A stretch of DNA of 45,153 bases from Deltaproteobacteria bacterium (GTDB taxonomy: Bacteria; SAR324; NAC60-12): assembly GCA_038150265.1 (NCBI GenBank), contig JAYOTF010000012.1, positions 1-45,153 on the forward strand. Reading direction: 5' to 3'. The notes beneath the pieces were generated by a model, which saw nothing but the letters and a program-made list of their open reading frames with translations, ran no database searches and was not told the origin of the DNA. Positions 1 through 44,712 of the stretch are shown one piece after another (the first letter of the stretch is position 1; each line of letters starts with the position of its first letter). Made by a program: the position numbers and the translations under genes.

Positions 1-53
<53 letters not shown>

Positions 54-70
54 ACGGGAGCGCGCGCAGC

Positions 71-2782
71 TCAGTCAGCCGTCCGAAAAGGTGTGGCCCC
101 CTGTTCCTGAAACAGGAGGGACAGGGCGTCAAGGCGGTTCTGCAGCTGCATGTGGGTGGGGGACTCCGGCAGCGCCTCCAGGGCCGCCTGCAAGGAGCTC
201 ACGGTTTTCCGGACACGGGGGTTGGCAGGGAGGCTGGCCAGATCGAGGTACCGGTCCAGGCCCCGTGTGCGCCACACGGTTCCATCCTGGTGTGCCCCCC
301 AGCCAAACTGTTGGGCAAAGGCCACCTTGCTGCCTCCCTCAGCTTCCCACGCCTGAAGCACCTCCTGCGTGACCTTGACCAGCTCCTGGCGAGGAGGCCG
401 ACCCGTCTCCGGAACCTTCGGGCGCTCCGGACGGATCTCTGGGGGCGTCTCCCGGAGCAGGTGCGGCTCCAGGCGGGCGATGAGCTCTGGAAAATGGATG
501 GGTTTGGAAACGTAGTCGTTGGCCCCGCTTTCAAACACGCGTGTCACCTCACGTTCGCGGTGAAAGGAGGTCAGCAGGAGGATGGGGAGTTGGGAGAAGC
601 GCTCCAGCTTCCGGACGTGCTGACAGAGGGTGAACCCATCCATGCCTGGTAGCTGGGTTGCCATCAGGATGGCATCCGGATGCTGATCGGGAAAGCGCTC
701 CAGCTGCTGGAGCAACTCTGCTCCAGAGCCAAATCCATCCACCTGCACCTGCGCACGCTGAAACGCTTCCAGGCCACTCCAGAGCAGCATCTGGTCCTCA
801 TCCACCAGAAAAACGCGGAACCGTGGCGTTGGCAGAGGTTCCGGAGGAGCCACTTCACGCGAGGAGGCAGCCAGGGACATGAGGGAGAAGCCAATCCGCT
901 TTCCCCCGGGCGTGCCCTCACAGCGCAGCTCGCTCTGGTGCAACCGAGCCAGCTCCTGCGCCAGGCTCAGCCCTGCTGTGGCTTCCGGGCGGGCGCGGCT
1001 GTGCCGCTTCCCCGGTTGGAGCCACTGCTGAAACTCGGTTGCTGTTGGCACTGGCCCGCCATCCTGCACTCCAATCTGAACCCGCTCCCCCTCTAACCAC
1101 GCCTCCAGCAGCACCTCTCCTGCGACCGAGTGCTGAAGCGCATTGAGCGTCAACTCCTGAAGCAGTTGGTACACCTGGTGCGGGTCGGCCCAAACGGTGG
1201 GGAGGGACTCGGGGGCATCCAGCACCAGCAGGTGCCGGGACCGCGGCTCCAGGACCCGCAGGAGGTCTTCCAGAAGGGCTCTGAGCTGAAGAGGCTGAGG
1301 ATGACACGGAAGGGCCTTCTCTTGGGCCTGGGCATGCTGGAAAACGCGCTCCATCTGTTCAATCAGGCGCAAGCTGGCTTCCTGGGCCAACCGCACCCGA
1401 GAGGCCACCGTCTGGGGGAGGTCCCAGTTGCCCTCCTTCACACTCTGCAGCAGCGTGTTGACGCTCTGCAAGGGGGGAATCACCTGCTCTGCGAGGTGCC
1501 CCGTCACCTGCTCGTGGAGTTCGTCCGCCCCTCGGGCCTCCTGCCTGAGCCGTTCCCTCCACTTGCCCTCGTTCTTGAAGAGCGAATGCTCCCAGGTCCG
1601 CCGCACCAGCACCCAGTTGATGAGCAGCAGCTCCACCAACACGGCTCCCTGCAGCGGCAGGACGAAGTACCCGACCGACAACGCCGGGACACTGATGGAC
1701 ACCACAATGTACACGGACGCCAGGAGCGGGAGAGACCAGGCCAGCGTCAGGAGGGTCACCTCCGAGTGGGTCCGGTGGAACCGCCACCAGCAGGCCCCCA
1801 GCACGCCCACCGTCACCAGCTGAAGCGGAAGTATCAGCAGCTCCTCGGGGAAATGAGGCGCCCAGACCTCAAACCCACTCCAGAAGGCGACACTGCTGAC
1901 CAGCGTGAAGACCTGTGTGTACGTAATCAGGCGACTCGCCTGAGGCCACGTGTGCGGCAGCTGCAACGCGCGTTTCATGACCTCAATGCTCAGCACCAGC
2001 GGCAGCCCATTCACAAACACCAGGAGGGCCCCCGGATGCAGGGAGTCCCAGTGGATCAGGAAGGGAAACCCGTTGTAGTACAGAAAGAATCCGGCATGTG
2101 CCAACAGCTCGACCGCGTAGGTGGCATGCAGGGCGCCCTCTCTTCCACGCCACGCCAGCACCCCCTGCATCAACAGCATCAGGAACAGCAGGGTGTAAAA
2201 CACCCCAATCAGCAACTCCTGAAAGAGTTGATTCACAAAAAGGGCTTCAGGGGGCAACACATCCACCCAGGCAATGAGCGGGAGTGGGTCATTGTGCAAG
2301 CGCAGAAGAAGCGGTTGCGCGGGATCCGGATGCGGAGGAAGTTCAAGCAGCGGATAGAGGCTCAGGCCGCGAAACGGACCTGGAGGCCGGAGCAGCCCTG
2401 CTGGGAGCTGCTGAAGCTGCCCGGCTTCTCGCCAGTACAGGTCTGCCTCAAGCAGGAGCGGGATCTGAACCTCGAGAAACCAGGCGCCCAGGGTTCCCGC
2501 GTCTGAGGGAAGCAGGGTTCCATCCAGACTCAACCACCACGCCGATGTCCCTGACACGTCCACCAGCTGTGCCTCTGGAAGCGCCTGAAAGGCTCCTTGC
2601 TGCCAGGCCTGGTGCGCCTCCTGAAACGAAGCCTGCCCCGTTGGGTCTTCCCACACCTGCAGAGAGCTCAGCAGGCGTGCGGCGGCTGACTCGGCCGCCC
2701 AGAGGGCGCGTCCTTGTCCTCCACTCATCAGGATGAGCAGCAGCAAACTGCCCACAGCGACAAACCGGGAAACCAATGTCAT
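71..2782 (-). CDS. Membrane sensor: 7TM-DISM extracellular/7TM domains, degenerate HisKA-HATPase, atypical REC, C-terminal ChiS-like DNA-binding domain (~903 aa)
   Basis: Likely start MTLVSRF at 2782 (TGATG overlap with the upstream stop), then a signal peptide, DISMED2-like 'LQVWEDPTG...WWL', hydrophobic helices, 'VWADPHQVYQLLQELTLNALQH', 'VQDGG', REC 'LVDED...GANDYVSKP', and C-terminal 'SKVAFAQQFGW...RTRGLDRYL...LPANPR'. Confidence 0.85.
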   Translation of the reverse strand: MTLVSRFVAVGSLLLLILMSGGQGRALWAAESAAARLLSSLQVWEDPTGQASFQEAHQAWQQGAFQALPEAQLVDVSGTSAWWLSLDGTLLPSDAGTLGAWFLEVQIPLLLEADLYWREAGQLQQLPAGLLRPPGPFRGLSLYPLLELPPHPDPAQPLLLRLHNDPLPLIAWVDVLPPEALFVNQLFQELLIGVFYTLLFLMLLMQGVLAWRGREGALHATYAVELLAHAGFFLYYNGFPFLIHWDSLHPGALLVFVNGLPLVLSIEVMKRALQLPHTWPQASRLITYTQVFTLVSSVAFWSGFEVWAPHFPEELLILPLQLVTVGVLGACWWRFHRTHSEVTLLTLAWSLPLLASVYIVVSISVPALSVGYFVLPLQGAVLVELLLINWVLVRRTWEHSLFKNEGKWRERLRQEARGADELHEQVTGHLAEQVIPPLQSVNTLLQSVKEGNWDLPQTVASRVRLAQEASLRLIEQMERVFQHAQAQEKALPCHPQPLQLRALLEDLLRVLEPRSRHLLVLDAPESLPTVWADPHQVYQLLQELTLNALQHSVAGEVLLEAWLEGERVQIGVQDGGPVPTATEFQQWLQPGKRHSRARPEATAGLSLAQELARLHQSELRCEGTPGGKRIGFSLMSLAASSREVAPPEPLPTPRFRVFLVDEDQMLLWSGLEAFQRAQVQVDGFGSGAELLQQLERFPDQHPDAILMATQLPGMDGFTLCQHVRKLERFSQLPILLLTSFHREREVTRVFESGANDYVSKPIHFPELIARLEPHLLRETPPEIRPERPKVPETGRPPRQELVKVTQEVLQAWEAEGGSKVAFAQQFGWGAHQDGTVWRTRGLDRYLDLASLPANPRVRKTVSSLQAALEALPESPTHMQLQNRLDALSLLFQEQGATPFRTAD

Positions 2783-5433
2783 CAAAAACCAGAAGGAGGA
2801 AAGGGGTGGGGCAAAGAGGCCTCGGGAGCTTCCTGAAGCAGCGCCTCCAGACGTTGCTGCAGGGCGTGCTGCTGAGGGCTTTCGGGGACTTCGCTGAGGG
2901 CCTGCTGAACCGAGTGGGTGACCTTGCTCAGGCGCACACGCTGAGGCAGTTTCTGAGCATCCAGGTACTGGTCCAGCCCTCGGGTGCGCCAGGTGTCTCC
3001 CTCCAGATGCGCCCCCCAGCCTGTTGCCTCGGCAAAGTCCGCTTTCGACTTTCCGGTGGTCCGCATGTAGAGCTGCAGCGTCTCCCGCAGCAATGCCGTC
3101 AGGTCCTCGCGCCACTGCCGCTCAGCGGCTCCCATGGGCTCCGGCGCCTCCTCACTCTGCAGGTGCGCCTGAAGCCGCTCCAGCAGTTCGCTCTGAGTGA
3201 AGGGTTTCACCAAAAGATCACCCACCGCGTCAGGGGCCGCCAACGCTCCGGATTCCAGTTGAGGGGCCACCGTCATCAGAATGACGGGTAACCGGGCCAG
3301 GTGTTCCTGAATCCACTGATACAGCTCCTCTGCCCCGGGCATTTGCTGATCCAGGAGGATCACATCAAAATGAGTGGCTCCGGCTGCCAGCAAGGACCGC
3401 GTCTCGGCAGCAGACGTCAGCACCGTCGGTTGGATGGACGCGTTGAGCAGCGTCTCAGATAACGCAAACAGGCTGGCTGGTTCGTCATCAACCAGCAGCG
3501 CCTGGTAGCGGAGAGGCTCCTCAGCTGAAGGCGAATGAGCGGCCTGCGGAGGCTCCTCAACTGTGAAACACGGCAGCTCAAACCCCCAACGCTCCTCGTC
3601 TGGAGCCCCCGTCACTTGCAGCTCATACCCTTGCTCGGCCAGCTGCCTCCGGATTGGCGCCAGACGATCTGCAGCGCCCGACTCTGAGGCCTCAAGCCCT
3701 TCAGCAGAGTGGTTGTTCTCCGACAACCGAGGTCCGGAGCAGTGGACGACAATCTGAACATGAGCCTCCTGAACCTCGACCTTCAGCTCCGTCACACCTC
3801 CCTGGGTCTGTCTCAACCCGTACTCCAGCAGCTTCTGCACAGCAGTTGTCAAATGCATCGGATCCGCCCAAACCGCAGGCAGCTCAGGAGGGATGTCTGC
3901 CACCAGAACCTGATTGAGCGGCTGGCCGGCCTCCACCCGCTGCATCGCTTCCTCCAGACACGGCTGAAGCATGACCCGGACCGGTTGCGCAAGGGCGCCC
4001 TCTCCCTTGGCCTGCTTCAGAAAGGTCCCCAGGACTCGCATCAAGCGGGCGCTGCTCTTCCGGACCTGTGAGAGGCGCTCTCGGGTGTGAGGCGGCAACT
4101 GGGGGTCTTGAAGGACGGTTTCCAGCATCAAGTGGCTGCCCTGCAGGGGGCGCATCCAGTCTGAAGCCACGCTGCCATAGAAGTGATCCTTCAGCCGCTC
4201 CAGCTCCCGGACATGCGTCCGCACCTGCTGCTCGGCCTCGAGCTGCTGCTGTCGCAGGTGACGGAAGCGGTCGACCAGCCCTCCGGAAAGTAGGAGGAAC
4301 AGCACCAGCAACCCTCCCAGCGCATACCAGTCGGAGTTCGGAGAGCGCGGGATCCAGTTCAGGCTTTCCAGGCTGATCAACGCAAAGCCAATCAGCGGTG
4401 CCAGGGCCCCGGCAAACAGGTAGTTGGCTGAAGGGATCCCCCGGTACGCCCCAAACGCTGACACCGCAATCAGGGCAAAGCTGGTGACCAGCGCATAGTA
4501 GATCCGGAACTGAAAGTACACCCGCATCCCCTCGGCCTCCAGCCCCAGCGGCAAGAACGCCATCACCCCGGCAATCGCTGCCAGCCCCCCCATCAGGTAA
4601 TACGCGCTCACCAGGTGCCGCCTCAGGTTGAGGAACACGTTAAAGAACAGGAGGGCCAACAGGCTACTCAGGGCTCCTGAGGTGGGAGACACCATCAGGA
4701 TCCACTCCTGAAGGTGCGGGTCCACCTCCAGCATCAGGTTCCCCCGGGCAAAGTAGATCAGGTACGTGATCAGGAAGAGGCTGTAGCAGAGAAAGCTCAC
4801 GTCCTCTCCTCCCCGAAAGAGCAGCAGGCTCTGGAGCGCCAAAAACAGGCTCACCCCCATGAACAGGCCCACCACCCAGCGCTCCGCCAGGCTTTCTTGC
4901 TGCAGCACACGCGGCTCCATGGCCACTAACGGAAAGCTCACGGCATTGACCGACTGCACCCGCCAGTGCAGCAGACGCGCCTCGCCCGGCTGCAACGTGA
5001 CCGCAAAGACCGGGACCCAGTAGGGCAGGGTCCGTTGGGAAACCGGGACAAAGCTTCCGGACCGCTCCACCGTTCCGGCCTGATCTGAGAACGGGTAGAA
5101 GTCCACCTGGTTGGTGTAGTAGTTATTGATCACCAGCCAGCGTTCCAAAGGAGCCTCTCCCGAATGATGCACCTGCACCCGGAACCAGTAGGTGGACCCG
5201 GAAAACCCGAGGTTGCCCAGAGGAGTGGGAGCCGGGGTGAACTTCTCTGTCCACTCAGGGCTCTGGACATCGGCCAGGGTCAGGGTTCCTTGCGGATCCT
5301 CCAGCACCTCCAGGTAGCCGTTCAGTTCCTGCCGGGGAAGGAACGCCTCCAGTTCAACAGCTCCCGCGTGAGCAGGGCTCAACAGGGCCCACCACAGCAC
5401 AAGCAGCCCGCTCCAGATGCCGCCTATTCGCAT
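2782..5433 (-). CDS. Paralogous membrane sensor: 7TM-DISM, degenerate histidine kinase core, REC, ChiS-like DNA-binding domain (~883 aa)
   Basis: Likely start MRIGGIW at 5433 with a signal peptide; DISMED2 motifs 'LEVLEDPQGTLTLADV' and 'NLGFSGSTYWFR'; 7TM region; 'VWADPMHL'; REC 'LLVDDEP...DVILLDQQMP...KPF'; C-terminal 'GKSKADFAEATGW...RTRGLDQYL...LPQRVR'. Confidence 0.88.
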   Translation of the reverse strand: MRIGGIWSGLLVLWWALLSPAHAGAVELEAFLPRQELNGYLEVLEDPQGTLTLADVQSPEWTEKFTPAPTPLGNLGFSGSTYWFRVQVHHSGEAPLERWLVINNYYTNQVDFYPFSDQAGTVERSGSFVPVSQRTLPYWVPVFAVTLQPGEARLLHWRVQSVNAVSFPLVAMEPRVLQQESLAERWVVGLFMGVSLFLALQSLLLFRGGEDVSFLCYSLFLITYLIYFARGNLMLEVDPHLQEWILMVSPTSGALSSLLALLFFNVFLNLRRHLVSAYYLMGGLAAIAGVMAFLPLGLEAEGMRVYFQFRIYYALVTSFALIAVSAFGAYRGIPSANYLFAGALAPLIGFALISLESLNWIPRSPNSDWYALGGLLVLFLLLSGGLVDRFRHLRQQQLEAEQQVRTHVRELERLKDHFYGSVASDWMRPLQGSHLMLETVLQDPQLPPHTRERLSQVRKSSARLMRVLGTFLKQAKGEGALAQPVRVMLQPCLEEAMQRVEAGQPLNQVLVADIPPELPAVWADPMHLTTAVQKLLEYGLRQTQGGVTELKVEVQEAHVQIVVHCSGPRLSENNHSAEGLEASESGAADRLAPIRRQLAEQGYELQVTGAPDEERWGFELPCFTVEEPPQAAHSPSAEEPLRYQALLVDDEPASLFALSETLLNASIQPTVLTSAAETRSLLAAGATHFDVILLDQQMPGAEELYQWIQEHLARLPVILMTVAPQLESGALAAPDAVGDLLVKPFTQSELLERLQAHLQSEEAPEPMGAAERQWREDLTALLRETLQLYMRTTGKSKADFAEATGWGAHLEGDTWRTRGLDQYLDAQKLPQRVRLSKVTHSVQQALSEVPESPQQHALQQRLEALLQEAPEASLPHPFPPSGF

Positions 5434-5486
5434 GGCAGAGTCAGCCTCAACGTTCCAGAATTCATGGGAAACAGCAGACTCCCGGC

Positions 5487-7280
5487 TCAGTGATTGTCGC
5501 GGGGAAGCCCCTTCGTTTGCGCGAGGCGCTGGTACTTCACCGATGGCTTGAGGACCATGCCGGCTGCGAGTTGGTCCACACACCCGCGCTGCAGTTCCTG
5601 CCAGGGCGTTTGTGAGTCCGGATAGGCATACCCGCCTTGTGCGTCCAGGGCATCACGACGGCGTTGGAGTTCCTCCGGACGCACCAACAGGTCCACGCGT
5701 CCAGCCGCCAGGTCGACGCGAACCCGGTCTCCGGTTTCCAGAATCGCCAGCCCTCCCCCGACCGCAGCCTCCGGAGAGGCATTGAGGATCGAGGGCGACC
5801 CGGAGGTTCCGGACTGCCGCCCATCTCCCACGCATGGCAGCTCCGTGACGCCTTGCTTGAGGAGGTAGTCCGGTGCCCGCATGTTGACCACTTCTGCAGC
5901 CCCCGGATACCCGATCGGTCCGGTGCCCCGCATGAAGAGGATGCAGTGGGCGTCGACCTCCAGGGTGGGGTCATCAATGCGGGCGTGGTAGTCCTCGGGT
6001 CCATCAAAAACCACTGCTCGCCCTTCAAAGGCGTTCGGGTCCTCGGGGTTGGAGAGGTACTGCTGGCGGAAGGCGTCTGACAGGACCGACGTCTTCAGGA
6101 TGGCCGCCTCAAAGAGGTTCCCCCGCATCACCTTGAACCCTGCCGCTGCCTGCAGAGCGGTCTCAAAGGTACGGATGACGTCCGGATCCTCGGCCACTCG
6201 TCCTCGGCAGTTGTCCCCGATCGTCTGTCCGTTGACCGTCTGGGCGGCTTCGTGAATGCGCCCGTGCCGCATCAACTCAGCGACCACCACGGGGACTCCG
6301 CCGGCATGGTGGTAGTCTTCTCCCAGGTACGTGCCTGCAGGTTGGAGGTTGACGAGGAGCGGGAGGTCCTGGCCAACGCGTTCCCAGTCCTCCAGCGTCA
6401 GGTCCACCCCCATGTGCCGGGCAATGGCGTTCAGGTGAATGGGGGCATTGGTGGAGCCTCCAATGGCGGTATTGACGGCAATGGCGTTCTCAAACGCTTC
6501 CCTGGTGAGGATGTCCGATGGCTTCAGGTCTTCCTGCACCATCGCCACAATGCGCTTCCCGGTTGCATAAGCCATCTGGGCCCGCTCGCGGTAAGGCGCC
6601 GGAATGGAGGCACACCCCGGCAGAGACATGCCCAGGGCTTCTGCCAGCGAGTTCATGGTGGTCGCGGTGCCCATGGTGTTGCAGTAGCCCGGAGAGGGGG
6701 CGGACGAGGCCACCAGCTCCACAAACCCGGCATAGTCAATTTCACCACGCGCCATCATCTCACGGGCTTTCCAGATGATGGTGCCGGAGCCCGTTCGCTC
6801 GCCCTTGAACCACCCGTTGAGCATGGGGCCGCCAGAGAGCACAATGGCTGGCAGGTTCACCGTCGCAGCCGCCATCAGGCACGCGGGTGTCGTCTTGTCG
6901 CACCCCACGGTCAGGACCACTCCGTCCAGAGGGTACCCATAAAGCACCTCCACCAGCCCGAGGTAGGCGAGGTTCCGGTCCAGCGACGCCGTGGGCCGCT
7001 TCCCGGTTTCCTGAATCGGATGCACCGGAAACTCAATGGCAATGCCCCCTGCCTCCCGGATGCCCTCGCGGACCCGCTTTGCCAGCTCCAGATGCGGGCG
7101 GTTGCACGGTGACAGGTCCGAGCCTGTCTGGGCGATGCCGATGATGGGTTTGCCGGACTGAAGCTCCTCGCGCGTCAGTCCATAGTTGAGGTAGCGCTCC
7201 AGGTAGAGCGCCGTCATGTCCGGGTTGTCCGGATTGTCAAACCACGCCCGAGAGCGCAGCGGTGTGGGTTCTGTTGCCAT
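5487..7280 (-). CDS. IlvD/Edd family dehydratase, XylD-like (pentonate/sugar-acid dehydratase)
   Basis: N-terminal '[22 protein letters not shown]' typical of the Caulobacter XylD group; 'PCN', 'GCDKTTP', 'CNTMGTA', 'GGSTN', 'DGRQSGTS'. Confidence 0.93.
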
Positions 7281-7314
7281 GGGGGCCTTTCAGAGACGGG
7301 TCAGGGAGGTGGGG

Positions 7315-7944
7315 TCACTTGGTGCCAAAGATGCGGTCACCGGCGTCACCGAGTCCGGGGAGGATGTAGGCATGGTCGTTGAGGCACCGGTCCACTGCCG
7401 CCGTGTAGATCGGCACATCCGGATGCACCTCGTGGAAGTGGGCGATCCCTTCAGGAGCGGCCAGCAGGGAGACAAAGCGGATGTCGCGAGCGCCCTTCTC
7501 CTTCAAACGGGCCACCGCTGCCGCTGAGGAGTGCCCGGTCGCCAGCATGGGATCCAGCGCCAGCACCAGTCGCTGATTGATCAGGTCCGGAAGCTTGAGG
7601 TAATACTCCACGGCCTGCAGGGTCTGCGGATCCCGGTACAGCCCAATGTGTCCGACCCGTGCGGACGGAATCATCTCCAGAAACCCTTCCAGCAGGCCAA
7701 TCCCCGCCCGGAGGATCGGGACCAGGCACAGCTTCTTGCCCTCCAGAAAGGGCGCCTGCATCGTCTCCAGCGGCGTCTGAATCTCTTCTGTATGAGTCGG
7801 CAGGTCCTTGGTCACTTCATACGCCATCAGCATCCCCACCTCCCGGGCCAGGCCCCGGAAGCTTTTGGTGGAGGTGTCCTGCATGCGCATCAGGGAGAGC
7901 TTGTGCTGCACCAGTGGGTGCTGAATTTCGTAAAGTTCTTTCAT
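7315..7944 (-). CDS. upp: Uracil phosphoribosyltransferase (209 aa)
   Basis: Start [10 protein letters not shown] at 7944; 'VPILRAG', PRPP motif '[10 protein letters not shown]', '[17 protein letters not shown]'. Confidence 0.97.
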
Positions 7945-8146
7945 AGGGGCCTCTTCTGCAACAAAACGCCGTCCGGATTCAGTGGCCGCAACGGCAAGGG
8001 TCAAAAAACGACGGAGAGTGTACACGATGTTGCGAGGAAGCACGAGCGGGGAAGGCGTCTTGGCCGGGAAGTCCGGCCGGAGCCTGGAGGCTCCAGTAGC
8101 AGGAGGGGGAAAAGGGCTCAGGCCTTCAGTGGCAGGGAGGCAGGTG

Positions 8147-8899
8147 TCAGGTGTTTTTGCGAGCCAGGTAGAACCCGTAACTGTAGAACGCCTTGAAGCG
8201 TTCATACAGCGCCACTTCCGACTCTTCGGCGTCCACAATCGCCTGAGCCGCTGCCGAGTGGCCGTTCCGGCTCAGGAAGGCCTGGAGGCGGGCCTGCATC
8301 GGGGTGTAGTAGTGATCCTTCCAGCACGCCTCCGGAAGCATCAGGTACCCGATGGGCGTGTAGCCCGCTTCTTCCAGCACCCGCATTTTCGCAGAGGCGG
8401 TGCCGACCTCCGGATACTCGGCCTCCCAGTGCTGCTGCAGTTCGGCAGGGCGCTCATGGGTCGTCCAGCTGAGCTCCGAAACGGCCAGCAGGCCACCGGG
8501 TTTCAGGAAGCGGCGCCACTGCGTGACTCCGGCCTGGAAGCCGATGTGGTAAATGGCTCCTTCTGACCAGATGCCGTCAAGGGACGCGTCTTCGAGGGGC
8601 AGGTCGTCCATGGACGCACAGAGCGGTGTGATCGCCTCCGCCACTCCCGCCTCTGTGGCCCGGGTGGTCAAGCGCTCCAAAAATTCGGGAAGGAGGTCCA
8701 CTGCGGTGATGTGAGCCCGGAGCTGACGAGCCAGCACCAGCGTGGAGGCGCCGGTGCCACACCCAATGTCGGCCAGCGCCAGGGGCGTGTGTGGGTCCCA
8801 GCCAGCCAGGGACAGGGCCTGTTCCGTCACAGCGTTGCTTCCGGGGCCTTGACGATCCCCATCCCGATGCAGATCCATCAGGAGTTCCAGTTCATTCAT
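8147..8899 (-). CDS. Class I SAM-dependent methyltransferase
   Basis: 'RQGPGS', motif I 'ADIGCGTG', 'AVDL', '[10 protein letters not shown]', 'LKPGG'. Confidence 0.92.
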
Positions 8900-9030
8900 G
8901 GGCGGTTTCCAGTATCAGAAGGGCAGGCGTCCCGAACCAAAGGGGTTCCGGACCACAAGGGACGTGTGAGGCTGCTCAGCATGACGCCCCCGGTTCGGGA
9001 GATCAAGAGGAAAGGGGCGCCTGGGGCTCT

Positions 9031-9552
9031 TCAGAAAACCGTCTGCTGTGGTTCCTCCGGAGAAAGGATTTGCTGGTCTCGCTCCACCACCTGCCCCTCC
9101 TGAGAGCGGGTGGCCGTTAACGTCAGCGTTGCCGAATCGTCCGTCCAGAGATGAGAGGTCAGTGTCACCGACTGAACCGGCCCCGGAAATTCTGCCACCG
9201 CCAAAATCACCCACTCGGTCCCCTCCTGCGGAGTGCCTTGAGCGGGAAGAATTTCCATCCACCTGGCTTCCCTCCCGTCGCTCTGCAACTCAATTCCTGC
9301 TTGAAACACCTGCTTGAGGTGCGTCAGAGCAACTCGCTTGCGGGCCCGGGCCTCTGCGTTTTCCGGAAGAAACAGCGCCTGGGGCAACGAGAGCGCCAGG
9401 TAAGCGGTGGTGCCGATCAGGTTAAGGGTGCCGTGCCCCTGCTGAAGCAAATGAGCGGAGGCCTCCGGAGGCGTCCCCCAGACCAGCAGCAGGGTGAGCA
9501 GCACGGCGGCCAGGCATGTTCTTCTCTGTTGAGCGTTACGAAGGAGACGCAT
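9031..9552 (-). CDS. Exported hypothetical protein (~173 aa), partner of the YHYH protein
   Basis: ATG at 9552 overlaps the YHYH stop (TGATG); signal peptide ending ASA-H; mature N-terminus 'HLLQQGHGTLNLIG'. Confidence 0.7.
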   Translation of the reverse strand: MRLLRNAQQRRTCLAAVLLTLLLVWGTPPEASAHLLQQGHGTLNLIGTTAYLALSLPQALFLPENAEARARKRVALTHLKQVFQAGIELQSDGREARWMEILPAQGTPQEGTEWVILAVAEFPGPVQSVTLTSHLWTDDSATLTLTATRSQEGQVVERDQQILSPEEPQQTVF

Positions 9553-17247: not shown

Positions 17248-19188
17248 TCAACGAACCAGGCTTCCCGGAGGAACCTCCGGAGGCGCCTCCAGCAGCGTGA
17301 TCCGTCCATCATGATCCGCCGCCAGGACCATGCCTTCCGACAGCGTCCCCCGCAACTTGACGGGTTTGAGGTTGCTGACCACGAGGACGCGTTTTCCAAT
17401 CATCTGCTCCGGCGTGTAGTGCGCGGCCACTCCGGAGACAATCTGCCGGGGCTGTTCCTCGCCAATGTCCACCTGAGACACCAGCAGGCGATCGGATTTT
17501 TTAACCGGCTCGCACTCCCGGATCACTCCCACCTTCAGCTGCACCTGCCCAAAGGTTTCCATGCCAATGGCCTCCCCCGCTTCCGCTTCTGCAGGGGAGT
17601 CGGCTTTTGCCGGGGCTGCAGCAGGTTTCGCCTCGGCCGGTTTGGCCGCGGGCGCCGGAGTTTCCTGAATCTTGGGAAACAGCGGCTCCGGTTCCGGAAG
17701 CTCCGATCCGGCCACGAGCAACCCCGGAACCAGGCGGCTCTCGCCCAGCGGACGTTCGGCCACACCCAGTTGAATCCGGGCCTGTTCCATCTTGTCAGGC
17801 ATCACCGGGTGCAGCAGGGCCACCAGCATCCGGGCGCAATCAAGGGCCGTGTAGAGCACGGTGCCGAGTGGTTCGCGCTGCTCCGGATCCTTCGCCAGTT
17901 TCCAGGGTTTGTGATCGTCAATGTACTTGTTGACCAGGCTGCTGAGCTGCATCACCTGCTCCAGCGCGCGGTGAGGCTGGAAGCCTCGGATCAGTGTCCG
18001 GACGCGGTCCATGCCCTGTGTGAACTCCTCCCGCAGCTGCAACTCGCGCGCTCCGAGCTTCCCCGGTTGCGGAACCGTGCCGGCAAAATTTTTCCGGGAC
18101 AGGGTAATGGAGCGGTTGAGCAGGTTCCCCAGGTTGTTGGAAAGGTCACCGTGGTAGCGGGCCAGGGCCAGCTCTTCCGTAAAGTTGGAGTCTTCCCCAA
18201 AGCTCATTTCCCGGAGCAGGAAGTAGCGGAGCGGATCCACCCCAAAGCGGTCCTTCATCTCCAGTGGATTGACCACGTTGCCCAGGGACTTGCTCATCTT
18301 GCTGCCCCCGATCACCCAGTGCCCATGCACCACGAGCTTCTTGAACTGCGGAAGGTCCGCCCCCTTGAGCATGCAGGGCCAGTAGATGCCGTGGGTCTTG
18401 AGGATGTCCTTGCCGATCACGTGGTGGCAGTGCTTCCAGTACTTGGCATAACGCGGATCGTCAGGCCACCCCAGCGCGGTGACGTAGTTGAGGAGGGCGT
18501 CAAACCAGACGTAGGTCACAAACTGATCATCAAAGGGGAGCTCAATGCCCCACGTCAACCGACTCTTCGGACGAGAGATGCAGAGGTCCTGCAGCGGCGC
18601 CTCCAGGAAGCTGAGCAGCTCGTTGCGGTAGCGCTTCGGGTGAACCCAGTCCTCATTGGCCTTCAGCTCGCCAATCAGCCAATCCTGATAAGCGCTCATC
18701 TTGAAGAAGTAGTTCTTTTCCCTGTAGGGCTGCGGGGGCTTTTGGTGGTCCGGGCAGTTGCCTTCCGGGGTCAGCTCGGACTCATCCAGAAAACGCTCAC
18801 ACCCAACGCAGTAATTGCCCTCGTACTCCTTGAGGTAGATCTCCCCCTTGTCGTAAATGCGCTGCAGGACCGCCTGGACCGACGACTTGTGCATCGGGTC
18901 AGTGGTCCGGATGAACTGGTCGTTTTCAATGTTCAGGTGAGGCCACAGCGCCTGAAACTCTGCGGTCATCTGGTCGACAAACTCTTGCGGCTCCACCCCG
19001 GCTTTTGCCGCGGATTCCGCGATCTTCTGTCCATGCTCGTCGGTTCCGGTCAGGAAGTAGCTCTCCTCCCCGAACAGCCTCCGGAAGCGGGTGATGACAT
19101 CCGTTGCAATCGTCGTGTAGGCATGCCCAATGTGGGGATGGCTGTTGACGTAGTAGATCGGGGTGGTGATGTAAAAGGGATCAGTCAT
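17248..19188 (-). CDS. metG: Methionine--tRNA ligase with C-terminal tRNA-binding OB domain
   Basis: 'YITTPIYYVN', HIGH, 'KMSKSLGN', C-terminal 'RQIVSG...SEGMVL'. Confidence 0.98.
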   Translation of the reverse strand: MTDPFYITTPIYYVNSHPHIGHAYTTIATDVITRFRRLFGEESYFLTGTDEHGQKIAESAAKAGVEPQEFVDQMTAEFQALWPHLNIENDQFIRTTDPMHKSSVQAVLQRIYDKGEIYLKEYEGNYCVGCERFLDESELTPEGNCPDHQKPPQPYREKNYFFKMSAYQDWLIGELKANEDWVHPKRYRNELLSFLEAPLQDLCISRPKSRLTWGIELPFDDQFVTYVWFDALLNYVTALGWPDDPRYAKYWKHCHHVIGKDILKTHGIYWPCMLKGADLPQFKKLVVHGHWVIGGSKMSKSLGNVVNPLEMKDRFGVDPLRYFLLREMSFGEDSNFTEELALARYHGDLSNNLGNLLNRSITLSRKNFAGTVPQPGKLGARELQLREEFTQGMDRVRTLIRGFQPHRALEQVMQLSSLVNKYIDDHKPWKLAKDPEQREPLGTVLYTALDCARMLVALLHPVMPDKMEQARIQLGVAERPLGESRLVPGLLVAGSELPEPEPLFPKIQETPAPAAKPAEAKPAAAPAKADSPAEAEAGEAIGMETFGQVQLKVGVIRECEPVKKSDRLLVSQVDIGEEQPRQIVSGVAAHYTPEQMIGKRVLVVSNLKPVKLRGTLSEGMVLAADHDGRITLLEAPPEVPPGSLVR

Positions 19189-19219
19189 GGTCGGTTCAGC
19201 AAGTCAAGGGGGCAAAGCG

Positions 19220-19507
19220 TCAGGGCAGTTGAATCACCGGCTCTTCCGGATGCGGACGGTACAGGGTCAGAGTCCGGCCCATCGTCTGGACCACCTGGAT
19301 GCCATGGAACCCTTCCAACTGGGCGGCACAGCCCTTCTTGTCGTCAGGCGCCTCTTCCAGAACCTTGACCTTCAGGAGTTCATGACGGTCCAGGCTGGCC
19401 TCCAGCTCCTTGAGAAAGGCCTCGGTGAGTCCAGCTTTGCCAATGTGGAGCAACGGTTTGAGGGAGTGGGCCAGACCCCGGAGGTAGCGTTTTTGTTTCC
19501 CGTTCAT
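19220..19507 (-). CDS. yhbY: YhbY/CRM-domain ribosome assembly RNA-binding protein (95 aa)
   Basis: 'MNGKQKRYLRGLAHSLKP', 'IGKAGL', 'HELLKVK', 'GRTLTLYR'. Confidence 0.93.
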   Translation of the reverse strand: MNGKQKRYLRGLAHSLKPLLHIGKAGLTEAFLKELEASLDRHELLKVKVLEEAPDDKKGCAAQLEGFHGIQVVQTMGRTLTLYRPHPEEPVIQLP

Positions 19508-32032: not shown

Positions 32033-34123
32033 CTAAAACTTCTCTGGAAACGCCTGAGCCTGCTCATCTTCGGGATTGGCGGCGACCACGGCCTGGATGA
32101 AGCGGTTGAAGGCGTCGAGGTACTCCACCTCAATCACAAACACGTCGATCAGGTAAAACCCACTGTTGTCCGAGTAGTAGTTGTCCGGAGGCGGGTAGCT
32201 CGACCAGTCTCGGACCACCATCTTCAACTCGCCAATTTCCTGAATCGAGAGCTGGGCCAGCGATCCCTGGCCAGAACGGTTGAACCACAGCCCCTTGTGG
32301 TGAACGACGTCCTCCCCAATGCTCACGGCCACGCGTCCCCGTTGCAGGTCCTGAGGCCCCCGTTGCCGGCACCCGGATCCCGGGCAAGTCGTCACCTGGC
32401 CGGTTCCGAAGATGAGCACAAAGTCTCCGTAATTCAGCTTCAGGTCCGTTCCCAACCACGGGCGCTGGCTGCCGTTGAGCTTCACCCGCCGGTACGCCTT
32501 CACGTGAAACCCCCGATCGTACTCCGGAAAGACCAGGGGGTCCGGACAGTTGAAGGCCAGGAAGCCACACCCCACGGTCTCGCGACTGGTCCGTTCGGCT
32601 TCTTTGTAGAGGGCCTCAAACCGCCGGCGCGTCTGAACGTCCATCAGCGGGCGCTCCGGCTCCACAGCCACCTTCGGTGCAGGCTCCGGAGCCTGGCGCT
32701 TCTTCAGGCTCAGCCGGGCCTGCTTGACCTGCTCCTGCGCCCAGGAAAAACTCTGGTACCGGTCAATGAAGGCCGTGTACTTTTCATCTGAGGCGTTGAA
32801 CTGCAGCTCCAGGTACTCGAACTGCATCCGCGCCTCTCGTGCCGACACACCCGAGGCCGACGGCTCTCCCGGAGAGGGCTCCCCTCGGAGCTTGGCCAGC
32901 CCGTCTCGCGCCACCTTCACCTCGTCAGCGGCCCAGGAAAAGCTCTGGTAGCGCGCAATGAAGGCCGCATACTTTTCTTCGTTGGCTCCAAATGACAGGT
33001 TCATGTACTCCTGCTGCATCTGCGCCTCCCGCTTCGTGAAGGCCTCAGAAGCCACCGCCGGAGGCTCCGGCGCCGGTTTGGGCGCTGGAGCGGGTTTGGG
33101 GGCCGATGCGGGCTTGGCCTGCCGACGTTCCAGCATCCGCTTCTTCAACTCGGCCACCCGACGCAGGGAACTCTCCGGAAACGACTCCAGAAAGAAGGCG
33201 AGGTCCTCCGGATTTTCCGATTCCTTCACCAACTCCCACGCCTCCTCGTCTGGACGGTACTGACTGGGCGGCTCACTGGGCTCTGGGGCCGGTTCCACCC
33301 GGGCCACCGCCACAGGCTCGGGCGCCTGACGTGGGTTGAAGTAGAAATCGCCCGTCAGCGAAGACGCATCCCAGGGAATCTGAGCCCCGCTGCTTTTTTC
33401 CTGCACCGTGGCCCGGACCTGCTTGAAGACGTCTTCCAGCTTCAGGTTGGGTTGTTGAATGAGCCGCACCAGCTCTCCGGTGTAAAGGCCGTTGCTGCCC
33501 TCACCATCGGACGCCACCGAGCCGGGGGCCGTCGCATAGGAAATGAAGGTGCCGGAAGGAGCGTTGAGCGTCGCCAGGCCCTGAGAGGCGCTCCGGAAGC
33601 TGCGGGCAAAGGGGTTGTTGCGGCAGGCGTCCAGGATGACGATGTTCATGCCGTTGCGCGCCGCCTCCATCTTGGCCAACACCCGCCCCACGTTCACCGA
33701 CTCGTACTCCACATCCTCTTCCGCGCTCAGCTGGGCGGTCACTGGAACCATGTAGTTCTCACCCTCCACCTGAATGCCGTGCCCCGAGTAGTAAAACAGC
33801 CCCACGCCTCCTTCGCGCAGCGCCTTCCCAAACTCGTCAATGGCTCGCTTCATCTCCACCTGCTTCGCGTTTTCCAGCAGCCGGACCTGAAACCCCACCT
33901 GCTTCAGAGCCGTTGCCATCGAGCGCGCATCGTTGAGCGGATTCTTCAGCGGAGCGGTCAGGTAATCCTCATTCCCGATGATGAGGGCATGGCGCTGGGT
34001 TCCGGAGGGTGCCGGCTCTGGAACCTGGGCAATGCCGCGCTGGGTCTGCGCATTGGCCACCGAGGCCAGCACTCCGACCATCCAGGCCAGGGCAATCAGG
34101 AAAGACAGGGGTTTCATCTGCAT
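32033..34123 (-). CDS. Secreted caspase-family (peptidase C14) protein with helical repeats and a LecA-like C-terminal domain
   Basis: Signal peptide; 'ALIIGNEDY', 'LKNPLNDA', 'FYYSGHG', 'ILDACRNNPF'; two ~48-aa repeats; C-terminal 'YSDNSGFYLIDV'. Confidence 0.9.
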   Translation of the reverse strand: MQMKPLSFLIALAWMVGVLASVANAQTQRGIAQVPEPAPSGTQRHALIIGNEDYLTAPLKNPLNDARSMATALKQVGFQVRLLENAKQVEMKRAIDEFGKALREGGVGLFYYSGHGIQVEGENYMVPVTAQLSAEEDVEYESVNVGRVLAKMEAARNGMNIVILDACRNNPFARSFRSASQGLATLNAPSGTFISYATAPGSVASDGEGSNGLYTGELVRLIQQPNLKLEDVFKQVRATVQEKSSGAQIPWDASSLTGDFYFNPRQAPEPVAVARVEPAPEPSEPPSQYRPDEEAWELVKESENPEDLAFFLESFPESSLRRVAELKKRMLERRQAKPASAPKPAPAPKPAPEPPAVASEAFTKREAQMQQEYMNLSFGANEEKYAAFIARYQSFSWAADEVKVARDGLAKLRGEPSPGEPSASGVSAREARMQFEYLELQFNASDEKYTAFIDRYQSFSWAQEQVKQARLSLKKRQAPEPAPKVAVEPERPLMDVQTRRRFEALYKEAERTSRETVGCGFLAFNCPDPLVFPEYDRGFHVKAYRRVKLNGSQRPWLGTDLKLNYGDFVLIFGTGQVTTCPGSGCRQRGPQDLQRGRVAVSIGEDVVHHKGLWFNRSGQGSLAQLSIQEIGELKMVVRDWSSYPPPDNYYSDNSGFYLIDVFVIEVEYLDAFNRFIQAVVAANPEDEQAQAFPEKF

Positions 34124-34150
34124 GACAACAAGTTCGAGTAGCAGGAACGT

Positions 34151-35530
34151 TCAACGAGTCAGGGCCTGCAGGCGCGCCTGGGCCCGCTTCACATAAAACT
34201 GGGCTTCTTCCTGTGCCGCGTACTGCCGAATGAACGACCGGTACGCCAGGGCGCTCCCACTCCGGACCACCTCCTCGTAGGCCTCACGAGCCGCTTCACG
34301 CCGAGAGGCCGACGCCGAGGCTCCAGAAGTTTGGGCTTCCGCCAGTTGCGACCGGGCCCGCTTCACGTAAAACGCAGCTTCCGGGACCGTTTCATACTGC
34401 CTGATGAATTTCCGAATTGCCAGCGGACTTCCTTCAGCAACCGCCTGTTCGTAAGCCTTGAGGCTCTGGGCCCGACGGGACACTTCCTGTCCGGAAGCCG
34501 TCACAGGAAACGGTGGCGCAATTTCCACCGGTGGCTCTGCCCGAAGGGACGCCTGCCGCTCTTGCTCCAGAAGCGCCAACCGCAACCGGGCCGCCTGGGC
34601 CAGGGGGCTGGCAGGAAAGCTCCTGAGGAAGAGCCAGAAGTCTTCCGGATTGGAAGAGTCCTTGATCATCGCCCACGACTCCTGATCCGCCTGAAACCGT
34701 TGGTGCAACGCGGGCAGTTGCTCGGAGGTGTGGACCGAAGCCTCCGCAGGCCGGAAGTAAAAATCGCCCGTCAGCGACGACGCCTCCCAGGGAATTTGCG
34801 TGTGGTTGCTCTTCTGCTGCACGGCCCGCCGCACCCGCTTGAAGACGTCTTCCACCTTCAGTCCGGGGGTTTCCAGCTGTTCAATCAATTCCCCGGTGAA
34901 GAGCCCGGTCCGCCCCGCCCCATCGGATGCCACGGCGCCTGGAGCTGTCGCGTAGGCAATGAAGGTTCCGGAAGGTGCCTTCAGCATCGCCAGGCCCTGA
35001 GCCGCACTCCGGAAGCTCCGGGCATACGGATTGTTGCGGCAGGCATCCAGGATGACCAGGTTCATGGCATTCTGCGCCGTTGCCATCTTTGCCAGCACGC
35101 GGCCCACCTCCACCGATTCGTATTCCACATCCGCTTCAGCAGCAATCTCGGCATCGACTGGAATGAGGTAGTTCCGTCCCTCCACCTGCATGCCATGTCC
35201 GGAGTAGTAAAACAGCCCCACGCTTCCTGGTTGCAGACGTTGGCCAAACTGATCAATCGCCTGCTTCAGCTCCTTCTGAGAAGCCTCCAGCAGCAACTCC
35301 ACGTCAAACCCGACGCGACGCAGCGTTGCCGCCATGGCTCGCGCATCGTTGACCGGATTCCGTAAGGGCGCTGAGGCGTAGCGGCTATTTCCCACCACCA
35401 GGGCCGTACGGGGCCCGGCTCCGGAAGGGGCTTCATCGCTCCGGACAATCCCGCGGGAAGTCTGAGCGCTTCCGGAGCCTCCCAACAGCCCCAGCAGAAC
35501 CGTCAGCCCAATCAGTTGTTTCCACAGCAT
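34151..35530 (-). CDS. Secreted caspase-family (peptidase C14) protein, paralogue (~459 aa)
   Basis: Start MLWKQ at 35530 with a GGAGA RBS; signal peptide; 'ALVVGNSRY', 'FYYSGHG', 'ILDACRNNPY'; C-terminal repeats 'FIRQY...FYVKRA'. Confidence 0.9.
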   Translation of the reverse strand: MLWKQLIGLTVLLGLLGGSGSAQTSRGIVRSDEAPSGAGPRTALVVGNSRYASAPLRNPVNDARAMAATLRRVGFDVELLLEASQKELKQAIDQFGQRLQPGSVGLFYYSGHGMQVEGRNYLIPVDAEIAAEADVEYESVEVGRVLAKMATAQNAMNLVILDACRNNPYARSFRSAAQGLAMLKAPSGTFIAYATAPGAVASDGAGRTGLFTGELIEQLETPGLKVEDVFKRVRRAVQQKSNHTQIPWEASSLTGDFYFRPAEASVHTSEQLPALHQRFQADQESWAMIKDSSNPEDFWLFLRSFPASPLAQAARLRLALLEQERQASLRAEPPVEIAPPFPVTASGQEVSRRAQSLKAYEQAVAEGSPLAIRKFIRQYETVPEAAFYVKRARSQLAEAQTSGASASASRREAAREAYEEVVRSGSALAYRSFIRQYAAQEEAQFYVKRAQARLQALTR

Positions 35531-35669
35531 CTTGTCTCCTTTTCCCCAGGTTCCGGAGGAGCTCGGAACGGTTTGGTTTTCGGCCCCTCCTGATTCAGCA
35601 ACAGGCATCCTTCCAGACGGACCAACCCTGTTTTTGCAAAACCGGCCCCTGCGGCAGGGTCAAGCCGCG

Positions 35670-36205: not shown

Positions 36206-36264
36206 ACCAAAGTGCTGACCTTCCTTATTGGATTTTTTCAACCTGATCACCCTTGCATGTCGCC

Positions 36265-37275
36265 ATGCTGAAAAACATCTTCATTGCTGCCGTGTTCCTC
36301 AGTGGAATCAGTGGGTTCCTCTGGTACAACCACCAATCCCCCCAAGCCTCCAACGCCTCCTTGAGTGGAACCGCGCTTCTGCCCAACTTCTCGGAAACCG
36401 AGCTGGCCCGGATCCACATCCAGGGCAAGCAGGACATTGAGCTGCGCCGTGAGACCCACGGCTGGGTGTGGAATCAGGAGCACTACCCGGCCGACCCAAC
36501 AGGGTTGCGGCAACTGCTGCTCAAGCTCTCGGAACGTCCGGTGGGCGACCTCATTACCAACAACCCGGAGCGGGCAGCCCTCTTTCAGCTCAAGGAGCCC
36601 CAGGCCAACGCCTGGAAGGACGGCGAGGATGCCGTCCGCCTGCAGCTCCTGAAGCAAGACGGCAGCGCCCTGCTGGACGTGCTCCTCGGCAAGAACCAGA
36701 CCGACGCTCAGGGACAGTACATCCGCCTCGCGTCCTCTTCCGAAATTTACGTCTATCCCGAAAAGCTCCCGGTTCCGGACAACCCGCAGGAGTGGCTCGA
36801 TCGCCAGCTGTTCGACTTTCCTGCCGGCCTCGTCACGCAGCTGACCTTCACCACTCCCGACAAGGACATCCTCCCCCTGCAAAAGGTCCAGGGCCAGTGG
36901 ACCCTTGCCGGGGGCACGGAAGCCATCAACCAGCAGGTCGTGGAAAATGCCCTGTCCACGCTTGCGTCCCTGGAGTTTGCCGAGGTGCTGCCTCAGGACA
37001 CCCCAGACGCCAACCTGCACCTGGACCAGGCCAGCGAAATTGTCGCCGAGCTGAAGGACGGGCGCTCCCTCTTCCTGACCCTGGCTGAAAAGGAAATGAC
37101 CAGCGGCAACCATGCGGTCCGCCTCAGCATTGAGCAGACCTCAACCGACAACGAAACCCTGAATCAGTCGGTTCAGGCCCTCCGGCAGCGCATCTCCGGA
37201 CGCTCCTTTACCCTCAAGTCCTGGGACGCCACTGACCTCCTGCAGACACGAGGTGACCTCCTGGAGAAAAAATGA
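36265..37275 (+). CDS. DUF4340 domain membrane-anchored periplasmic protein
   Basis: N-terminal anchor (MLKNIF...); 'W...YPAD', 'LLLKLSE', 'VLLGK...QYIR', 'EWLDRQL'; internal duplication. Confidence 0.78.
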   Translation: MLKNIFIAAVFLSGISGFLWYNHQSPQASNASLSGTALLPNFSETELARIHIQGKQDIELRRETHGWVWNQEHYPADPTGLRQLLLKLSERPVGDLITNNPERAALFQLKEPQANAWKDGEDAVRLQLLKQDGSALLDVLLGKNQTDAQGQYIRLASSSEIYVYPEKLPVPDNPQEWLDRQLFDFPAGLVTQLTFTTPDKDILPLQKVQGQWTLAGGTEAINQQVVENALSTLASLEFAEVLPQDTPDANLHLDQASEIVAELKDGRSLFLTLAEKEMTSGNHAVRLSIEQTSTDNETLNQSVQALRQRISGRSFTLKSWDATDLLQTRGDLLEKK

Positions 37276-43864: not shown

Positions 43865-44712
43865 TAGGTCTCGCAGTACTGCAGTAGCGCTGACCCTGCT
43901 TTGATGATGTCTCCGTCTTTGAGTGGTTGTTGATGGACTTTCCGAAAATTCACCTCCAGTTCCCCGCCTTTCTCCACATTCTGCAGACTCATCTGCTCAT
44001 TGTCGATCCGGAGGTCAGCGTGGTGGGCACAGACCTCGGTGTACCCCGAGAGCCTCAGGTCCGCGTGACGGCCATACCCGAGGCTCAGCAACGGGGATGA
44101 CAGCAACCAGGATTGCCCGATTTGTGGTCCATTGATCACACGCAACTGTGCGTGAGAGGTCAGATTTTCTAAACCCGCCTGGACCAACTGGTACGTCAGG
44201 CCATAAGCGAGCAACGCCACCGCTTGCGCAGTGCCATCAAAGGGAGTAAGCGCTACAAGTTCAACAAGAAGCCCACCGGCCAAACCTCCGGCCCCTCCCC
44301 CCAGACACGGGCGGAGGATGAGATGGGATCGAGCATGAAACACACAAGAAGCCCCACCCAGCAACAAGCCGAGCACGCCCCATCCAACCAGACGGGAAGC
44401 AAAAGGTGGGACCTGATAAGCCAACAGATAATCGGCTGAACGGAAAGCAAGCCACCCGCTGACGCCTCCAATGACGGCTCCCCTGAACACATGGAGGGCC
44501 ACTTCATTGAGGGGCAGGTGCTTCAAAAGCGGATCCCGGGCCAACAGAATCGCCCCCAACCCTGCAGAGGCGGTTATCCCGTGGATCACAAAAGGAGAGA
44601 TCGTGAAGTACTCAACAAAGGTAGGACTGAGCGCGAGCAACCCCCACGCCACCAAACCGGCAACAGCCCCCAGCAAGGCATTTTCCAGTAAATGCTTACC
44701 TTTGTGGGGCAT
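43864..44712 (-). CDS. Multi-pass membrane protein with C-terminal FHA domain
   Basis: About 6 Gly-rich TM helices, then 'LGYGRHADL...VCAHHA...VNF...LKDGDIIKAG'; stop overlaps the next start (TAATG). Confidence 0.82.
   Translation of the reverse strand: MPHKGKHLLENALLGAVAGLVAWGLLALSPTFVEYFTISPFVIHGITASAGLGAILLARDPLLKHLPLNEVALHVFRGAVIGGVSGWLAFRSADYLLAYQVPPFASRLVGWGVLGLLLGGASCVFHARSHLILRPCLGGGAGGLAGGLLVELVALTPFDGTAQAVALLAYGLTYQLVQAGLENLTSHAQLRVINGPQIGQSWLLSSPLLSLGYGRHADLRLSGYTEVCAHHADLRIDNEQMSLQNVEKGGELEVNFRKVHQQPLKDGDIIKAGSALLQYCET

Follow-up and report, generated by a model that had tools for sequence, protein, structure and literature searches.

Domain organisation of the A/B locus

The window analysed here, 45,153 nucleotides of SAR324 DNA, is the first 45 kb of contig C12 (JAYOTF010000012.1) of a genome (G000) of 3.39 Mb that is assembled in 87 contigs and is 97.8% complete. 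Near its beginning lie two genes on the minus strand, A (2782–5433, 883 residues) and B (71–2782, 903 residues), each encoding a signal peptide, a DISMED2 sensor, a seven-helix membrane domain, a kinase-fold core, a receiver and a C-terminal tail related to the DNA-binding domain of the Vibrio cholerae hybrid kinase ChiS. The pair is best read as membrane-anchored transcription factors, as the first-pass annotation of this DNA had suggested, and the ChiS-type identity of the tails is supported by sequence, profile and fold. The coupling of the genes through a stop/start overlap, TGATG, was confirmed at 2780–2784 on the minus strand, and an independent contig (1243–3123) bridges the junction.

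The domain order proposed earlier, 7TM-DISM, kinase fold, receiver and tail, is borne out in both proteins by Pfam, with the seven-helix domain of B coming from a model only. In A the extracytoplasmic 7TMR-DISMED2 sensor (residues 39–172; 4918–5319, minus strand, as are all the features of the pair) is matched at an E-value of 1.5e-26 and is followed by the membrane domain (residues 186–389; 4267–4878), which is assigned from the Pfam family 7TMR-DISM_7TM (1.2e-18) and from hydropathy. The corresponding region of B (1598–2665) contains a divergent DISMED2 (residues 40–165; 9.8e-10) and seven predicted membrane helices (178–395); no Pfam 7TM match was found in B, where hydropathy gives five membrane helices besides the signal peptide and an alignment-guided model gives seven, after a beta-sandwich. 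The full-length model of B, which was built on 21 aligned relatives and has a mean predicted local distance difference test score (pLDDT) of 77, runs from a signal helix through the beta-sandwich and the seven membrane helices into a long helix that leads to a DHp hairpin, an ATPase-type fold, the receiver and the tail. Its best fold matches are histidine-kinase cores, with the kinase region of RetS among the top ones, but because the aligned intact relatives bias the model towards this fold it shows fold compatibility and no more.

The linkers between receiver and tail are only 15 and 25 residues long in A and B, respectively, as against 127–236 in more distant relatives. No PAS domain was matched between receiver and tail in either protein at an E-value of 0.1, and the linkers leave no room for one. 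The tail is at the extreme C-terminus, with 15–16 residues following the domain in each protein. The earlier statement that no separate response regulator lies nearby holds for positions 1–45153, which contain no other open reading frame (ORF) with a receiver domain, but the contig stops 70 bases beyond the end of B and the downstream side is not covered. The next such ORF on the contig is at 59183; G000 as a whole has 55 ORFs with a receiver domain and 52 with an ATPase-fold match.

Loss of kinase chemistry

The degenerate DHp and ATPase-fold cores were placed by alignment at 3559–4203 in A and 887–1525 in B. HATPase_c is matched in Pfam at 3.8e-8 in B and at only 0.073 in A, and HisKA is matched in neither. 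The first-pass annotation had described a kinase-like core and the kinase fold is indeed present, but the catalytic death of both cores had gone unnoted. When 29 proteins are aligned, each of the 21 kinase-intact relatives among them retains the phosphorylated histidine, the N-box asparagine, the G1 aspartate, the G2 glycines and the five catalytic residues of the receiver. In A the histidine is replaced by Ser424 and all three ATP boxes are lost, with Tyr538 in place of the N-box asparagine, Cys565 in place of the G1 aspartate and alanine and arginine in place of the G2 glycines. In B Glu432 replaces the histidine; the N-box Asn547 and the G1 Asp574 are retained and the glycines of G1 and G2 are eroded. 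Judged from these residues neither protein has a phosphorylatable histidine and both are predicted pseudokinases, though B may have kept residual ATP binding. Complementation of A and B into one active kinase was considered and rejected, since a kinase cannot be rebuilt jointly when neither partner carries the histidine.

The receivers differ from one another. That of A (3172–3498; Response_reg 1.1e-11) has all five catalytic positions (D649, D650, D695, T721 and K743), whereas that of B (470–814; 2.1e-19) has Ala708 at the phosphorylation site and retains D661, E662, T738 and K760. With the catalytic positions and receiver classes defined as in PMC12632262, the receiver of A would be classed by its residues as canonical and that of B as aspartate-less. 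The loss of the kinase fits what is reported for ChiS (bioRxiv 2020.01.10.902320; PMC12704726). The H469A, D772A and double mutants of ChiS still activate and phosphorylation lowers its binding to DNA (bioRxiv 2020.01.10.902320); as this phospho-switch turns ChiS OFF, a protein that has lost it would remain capable of binding DNA.

The tails are ChiS-type domains

The motif that the first-pass annotation noted in both tails is present as written, within ChiS-family helix–sheet–helix domains that span residues 772–868 of A (about 2830–3120) and 797–893 of B (about 104–394). The proposed resemblance to the DNA-binding domain of ChiS is upheld by sequence, profile and fold matches to PDB 7KPO, with whose sequence the ChiS string given in that annotation agrees. 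Searched against 177,635 PDB sequences, both tails find 7KPO first (A 9.8e-8, B 2.1e-10; the runners-up are at 0.14 and 1.1), and a profile of the 16 tails of the genome matches it at 1.2e-30, consistent with homology to residues 1024–1129 of ChiS. No ChiS domain appears among the Pfam and NCBIfam matches of these proteins of the window.

The fold comparison was carried out on the tail of B, that of A being assigned by sequence and profile. The B tail model (pLDDT 93.9) is made up of helices 7–24 and 29–35, strands 41–43 and 46–48 and helix 50–54, in a helix–sheet–helix arrangement. It superposes on 7KPO with a template modelling score of 0.83 and a root-mean-square deviation of 1.7, and in the Foldseek comparison that had been proposed 7KPO is the lone match under 1e-3 (E-value 4.9e-6). 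The VIA Z score to 7KPO is 14.7; the second of the 48,161 chains compared scores 6.6.

The basic positions reported as critical in ChiS are 1068, 1074, 1078, 1090 and 1092 (PMC8092284), where B has Gly, Arg, Arg, Arg and Arg and A has Gly, Arg, Gln, Arg and Ser. The single basic residue missing from B is thus at 1068, a position that varies in the family. It seems very unlikely that the tails, while sharing the ChiS fold, bind protein in place of DNA, or that the B tail alone binds DNA and that of A is structural. This explanation draws on the several conserved positions lost from the A tail and on ChiS being the only member of the family reported, in the literature consulted, to have been tested for DNA binding. 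Against it, all eight His-less paired proteins described below keep Arg or Lys at 1074 and Arg at 1090, and the nearest folds to the B tail after 7KPO include many XRE/lambda-type DNA-binding domains.

Relatives and coupled pairs

With an iterated profile 16 ChiS-type tails were found in G000 (E ≤ 5e-30; the next match is at 0.1). Ten are on 7TM-DISM/kinase-fold proteins, four on plain receivers and two are nearly bare. One of the ten 7TM-DISM paralogues is split over contigs C85 and C80 (147-base overlap, 98.6%), and another, C65a, is too divergent for any Pfam match and was placed by alignment; six have an intact kinase. The survey across genomes that the first-pass annotation had recommended was run and finds the tail domain in 42 of the 79 genomes of the phylum, with 27 of 38 in the family, none of 18 in the sister family and up to 16 copies. 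In a collection of 1.84 billion proteins clustered at 50% identity, the tail profile matches 984 clusters.

The H-box was examined in 49 long kinase-type proteins that were chosen by length from 173 matches, two of them being cut by contig ends before the tail. The histidine is present in 38 and absent from 11. Eight of these 11 form four coupled tandem pairs, and there are no coupled pairs with an intact member; among uncoupled proteins, some of whose genes are at contig ends so that their neighbours are not covered, the histidine is missing in 3 of 41. The four pairs are A/B itself (TGATG), C65a/b of G000 (ATGA overlap) and pairs on C17 of G001 (TAATG) and C24 of G053 (8-base gap). The second coupled His-less 7TM-DISM/ChiS-tail pair is found at L001:3645-8887, L015:7016-12396 and L050:5482-10751, in differing neighbourhoods; these three pairs appear orthologous in order, in three genomes and two genera, as judged from best BLAST matches and from the tail tree (84/70 and 86/95). 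Their receivers are more eroded than those of A and B, and the second pair is the older. The uncoupled ChiS-tail kinases that lack the H-box histidine (L059:1543-4461, L060:297-3284 and L065:2168-5323) have Leu in two cases and an eroded box in one. Loss of one DNA-reading head per pair was also considered as a rule: in each of the four pairs position 1078 is basic in one partner and not in the other, but with 10 of the 21 intact relatives basic there this is near chance and the idea was dropped.

The tails of A and B are sisters in the careful tail tree (88/91). The intact protein encoded on contig C21 shares a one-residue deletion with both and joins them at 81 in the quick tail tree, though its position is unsettled in the careful one. 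The DISMED2 sensor of A is 54% identical to that of C21 and groups with it (99 starred) in a sensor tree that is a quick version; the kinase–receiver tree is a FastTree tree with long-branch warnings. The N-terminus of B resembles by eye the sensors of C85 and C65a/b. Since the two proteins look to different relatives in this region, B is possibly of mosaic origin, and A and B between them probably respond to two different signals.

No close relatives of A and B were found in G001, G002 or a large protein collection, the best matches being 37% and 29–30% identical over long stretches, and two sister genomes, each 96% complete, lack the pair. Homologue searches with the whole proteins returned generic kinases alone, and the ESM Atlas gave unnamed clusters (0.90) and helix-turn-helix leads.

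Several other forms of the tail family were seen. Four soluble response regulators of G000 consist of a receiver and a ChiS tail (C2:29383-30171, C25:604-1443, C4:38908-39732 and C1:54127-55038; L008, L010, L012 and L013), a class that lies outside the eight named in the 2021 data set (PMC8092284). Bare or nearly bare tails are found at L011:5624-5980, L009:5622-6260, L024:545-1975, L061:2379-3460 and L062:1795-3059, and in G001 and G041 one or two small genes for a tail alone come immediately after a receiver–tail gene. Soluble multi-PAS histidine kinases adjoin two intact 7TM-DISM/ChiS-tail genes (L003:389-2824 and L004:6087-9200), and these kinases are possible phosphate donors to the family. 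Contig ends overlap at C80:1-144/C75:4777-4919 (92%) and C85:1-147/C80:3521-3667 (99%), which suggests that strain variation broke the assembly.

Selection on the pair and its domains

DNA of A and B was found in nine of the 11 listed runs, from five studies and mostly estuarine or aquatic, three of the runs having small shares, and sequence variation was compared across four runs. Run X2, which comes from a study other than that of the best-matching run, has reads in every one of 30 bins; in addition to the contig across the A/B junction it has another that bridges the dehydratase/A junction. Its indels amount to only two bases outside the reading frames and one in-frame change of three bases, with no frameshift. 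The codon analysis rests on 40 listed differences of 126 in total, of which 39 are in A or B; 36 codons are changed, 23 silently and 13 not. With an expected silent share of 0.31 (about 11 of the 36) the excess has a p-value of 4e-5, and the ratio of non-silent to silent polymorphism (pN/pS) is about 0.22 for B and 0.32 for A. The reading frames are intact and A and B are under purifying selection.

The excess of silent changes bears on whether A and B might be decaying duplicates that are on their way to becoming pseudogenes, with the tail preserved in appearance alone. Long branches, lost catalytic residues and absence from the two sister genomes would all fit such a fate, but full-length frames with signal peptides and without a frameshift in the contigs of another study would not; nor would conservation that is uneven by domain, or the retention of a parallel pair in two genera. 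Decay is thus extremely unlikely.

Between A and B the tail is 46–47% identical and each other domain 15–29%, the sensors (DISMED2 and membrane domain) being at 15–17%. When the eight His-less paired proteins are compared with one another, conservation is highest in the tail in 27 of 28 cases, as against 7 of 210 among the 21 intact proteins, counts in which the comparisons share members and the pairs are non-independent. On these identities, selection has retained the DNA-binding end and released the phosphorelay. Recent gene conversion between the tails of A and B was looked for and is unsupported, there being just one 63-base stretch at 78% identity.

Poor conservation of the sensors among the His-less proteins, with a mean of 17% identity between them, would also be expected if A and B were constitutive, non-sensing membrane tethers that hold promoters for another transmembrane regulator, as ChiS does for TfoS. 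The main function reported for DNA binding by ChiS is to bring PtfoR to the membrane, and a TetR swap can take its place (PMC11856585). The sensor of A, however, is well kept, at 54% and 44% identity to C21, and the DISMED2 of B passes the Pfam cut-off, with both of the listed changes there being silent. A purely tethering role is for these reasons judged distinctly unlikely.

Comparison with known systems

The combination of a 7TM-DISM input with a ChiS tail, which the first-pass annotation presented as a candidate membrane-tethered one-component system, is present but is not new. It was catalogued in 2021 (Klancher; PMC8092284, Fig 5A legend and Data Set S1), and the 7TMDISM classes listed there, predicted sensor transcription factors, have the same input and output domains as A and B. 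The three that are named all carry PAS, unlike A and B, and none is described as kinase-dead or paired. SAR324 and Lambdaproteobacteria proteins are in its unassigned sheet (255 rows, no architecture), which may include forms without PAS. The layout itself having been catalogued, the distinctive feature of A and B is the catalytic death of both. In the open-licence part of PubMed Central and in bioRxiv nothing was found on kinase-dead or paired ChiS-family proteins or on an expansion in SAR324, though such proteins could be described in subscription papers or be among the unnamed rows of Data Set S1.

ChiS itself shares with A and B a membrane anchor, a kinase-fold core, a receiver and a C-terminal helix–sheet–helix domain, and needs no partner regulator (bioRxiv 2020.01.10.902320; PMC8092284). 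It differs in having two membrane helices, a periplasmic binding protein as partner, a PAS domain before the tail and an active kinase/phosphatase, none of which is seen in A and B; these have instead a seven-helix DISM input, no PAS, no phosphorylatable histidine and a coupled partner. Bacterial pseudokinases and Asp-less receivers are known in which a catalytically dead core or receiver signals through binding or shape (PMC9491836; PMC12632262), as would be the case for A and B, but none of those consulted joins a dead core to a DNA-binding domain in one membrane protein. An evolved variant of ChrS is such a pseudokinase, and ChrS forms heterodimers with HrrS (PMC9491836).

The RetS protein of Pseudomonas aeruginosa resembles A and B in its DISMED2 sensor and degenerate kinase core, and acts through receivers as well as through a DHp heterodimer. 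RetS keeps its histidine and acts on GacS, whereas A and B carry their own predicted DNA-binding output. RetS is not known to have a DNA-binding domain. DivL is a further example of the bacterial pseudokinases and Asp-less receivers mentioned above.

RetS has lost ATP binding and forms a heterodimer with GacS through the DHp domains (PMC8498467), a precedent on which A and B could be modulators that pair through DHp with kinase-intact paralogues, chiefly C21, and block their autophosphorylation or drain phosphate into the receiver of A, so tuning DNA binding by the mixed dimer. Six such paralogues would be in the same membrane, the sensor of A groups with that of C21, its closest relative, and A keeps the five receiver sites even though its receiver is just 29% identical to that of C21. 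The DHp domains, though, are only 25% (A) and 16% (B) identical to that of C21, compared with 56.9% between RetS and GacS (PMC8498467), and the tail of A is nearer that of B (46–47%) than that of C21 (33–34%), which points to a job shared by A and B. Modulation of this kind is accordingly regarded as unlikely.

A model for signalling by the pair

It would seem probable, if by no means certain, that both proteins are ChiS-family transcription factors anchored in the membrane, descended from a 7TM-DISM hybrid kinase, that have given up autophosphorylation and are switched allosterically. An outside ligand would bind DISMED2, with a carbohydrate or glycan as the lead by analogy with RetS, which senses glycans through this domain (bioRxiv 2020.03.31.018614). 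The seven-helix bundle and the long helix into the DHp stalk would relay the change of shape to the receiver and tail, the kinase core persisting as dimerisation stalk and lever. The two tails of a dimer would then bind paired short DNA sites, recruit polymerase and activate from the membrane, as unphosphorylated ChiS does. In B, whose receiver presumably cannot take phosphate, allostery would be the sole control left; the receiver of A could still accept phosphate from another kinase of the genome.

The two proteins are probably produced at equal levels and cooperate. An A:B heterodimer is put forward tentatively, with somewhat less than even confidence, from the coupling of the genes and the RetS–GacS and ChrS–HrrS precedents; two homodimers that read two ligands are the main alternative under allosteric switching from the membrane. 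A complex prediction of the two kinase cores scored 0.16 against a mark of 0.32, in a run in which the controls did not fold.

Several observations weigh against the model. The A tail lacks three of the five basic residues critical in ChiS (1068, 1078 and 1092) and deviates at near-invariant positions of the family (Pro to Val, Trp to Leu and Trp to Tyr). Its Gln at 1078 is the substitution that abolished DNA binding by ChiS (PMC8092284); of 149 library representatives 144 have Arg or Lys at this position, but it is basic in just 10 of the 21 close kinase-intact relatives, and on this comparison the Gln would be a reason for doubt and not proof of lost DNA binding. DNA binding, ligand and target are all inferred for A and B. 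Given its strong divergence the sensor of B could be non-sensing. The four coupled pairs, in three genomes, probably represent about two origins, and the Fisher value for the pattern overstates it; with three His-less proteins partnerless, kinase loss does not require coupling. Finally, as no search gave a close relative, the A/B pair itself is known from one species.

A bolder form of the model, offered as speculation and thought rather unlikely, is that in this lineage tandem duplication of a ChiS-type hybrid kinase, with both copies losing the histidine, has twice given an obligate heterodimeric membrane transcription factor. This would have two sensors, a dead-kinase lever and, to read an asymmetric site, two DNA-binding heads that differ in their tuning, with the pair of the window keeping one live receiver for a veto by other kinases. 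Since ten 7TM-DISM paralogues would share one membrane, their mixed dimers could form a combinatorial code of membrane-bound transcription factors.

Candidate targets and neighbouring genes

A sugar-acid-type dehydratase of the IlvD/Edd family (PRK13017 subfamily; 5487–7280, minus strand) lies upstream of A, co-directional with it and 53 bases before it. It was considered as a clue to the ligand and set aside: the upp–dehydratase block is kept in G002 and the dehydratase in G001, with no adjacent 7TM gene in the stretches examined, and the dehydratase is not a conserved partner of A and B. Sites of the ChiS type, with the operator core taken from Fig S1 of PMC8092284, are not enriched in the genome (observed/expected 0.5–1.1) and there is no excess of pairs 28–32 bases apart. 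A single match to the operator with two mismatches lies upstream of upp and is not kept in G002, and no sigma-70-like promoter was found in positions 1–9100 of the window. The sequence TCCGGA occurs about 2.7 times per kb genome-wide in G000; as a target of the tail family it was rejected, since its frequency does not follow the number of ChiS tails in relatives: it is 0.18 per kb in the loci of G010 (16 copies) and 0 in those of G017 (12 copies), compared with 2.65 in G000.

The contig opens with a run of 51 C (1–51), the sole such end among the 87 contigs. A contig of run X2 carries 103 letters past position 52, so that the genome continues there, and the run may be a sequencing artefact. 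Elsewhere in the window two tandem proteins with a caspase-like domain (32033–35608; NCBIfam NF047832, E-value about 5e-20, below the cut-off) lie next to a gene for a UvrD-like helicase. The long ORFs at 17311–19368, 9031–9549, 36247–37113, 39946–41445 and 43864–44712 have no NCBIfam match at 1e-5, the first two being negative in Pfam also, at 0.1.

Implications

ChiS is a sensor kinase that binds DNA itself and whose phosphorylation sites are dispensable for activation, and pairs of the A/B type look like a natural end point of this design. The losses in A and B suggest receptors that switch genes by change of shape alone. With such pairs it could be tested directly whether the signal of a seven-helix receptor can reach DNA through a kinase scaffold purely by change of shape, and whether pseudokinases that come in pairs make heterodimeric transcription factors. 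More broadly, the ChiS domain is a major hidden class of regulator in the phylum, one that includes response regulators consisting of a receiver and a tail that annotation would miss.

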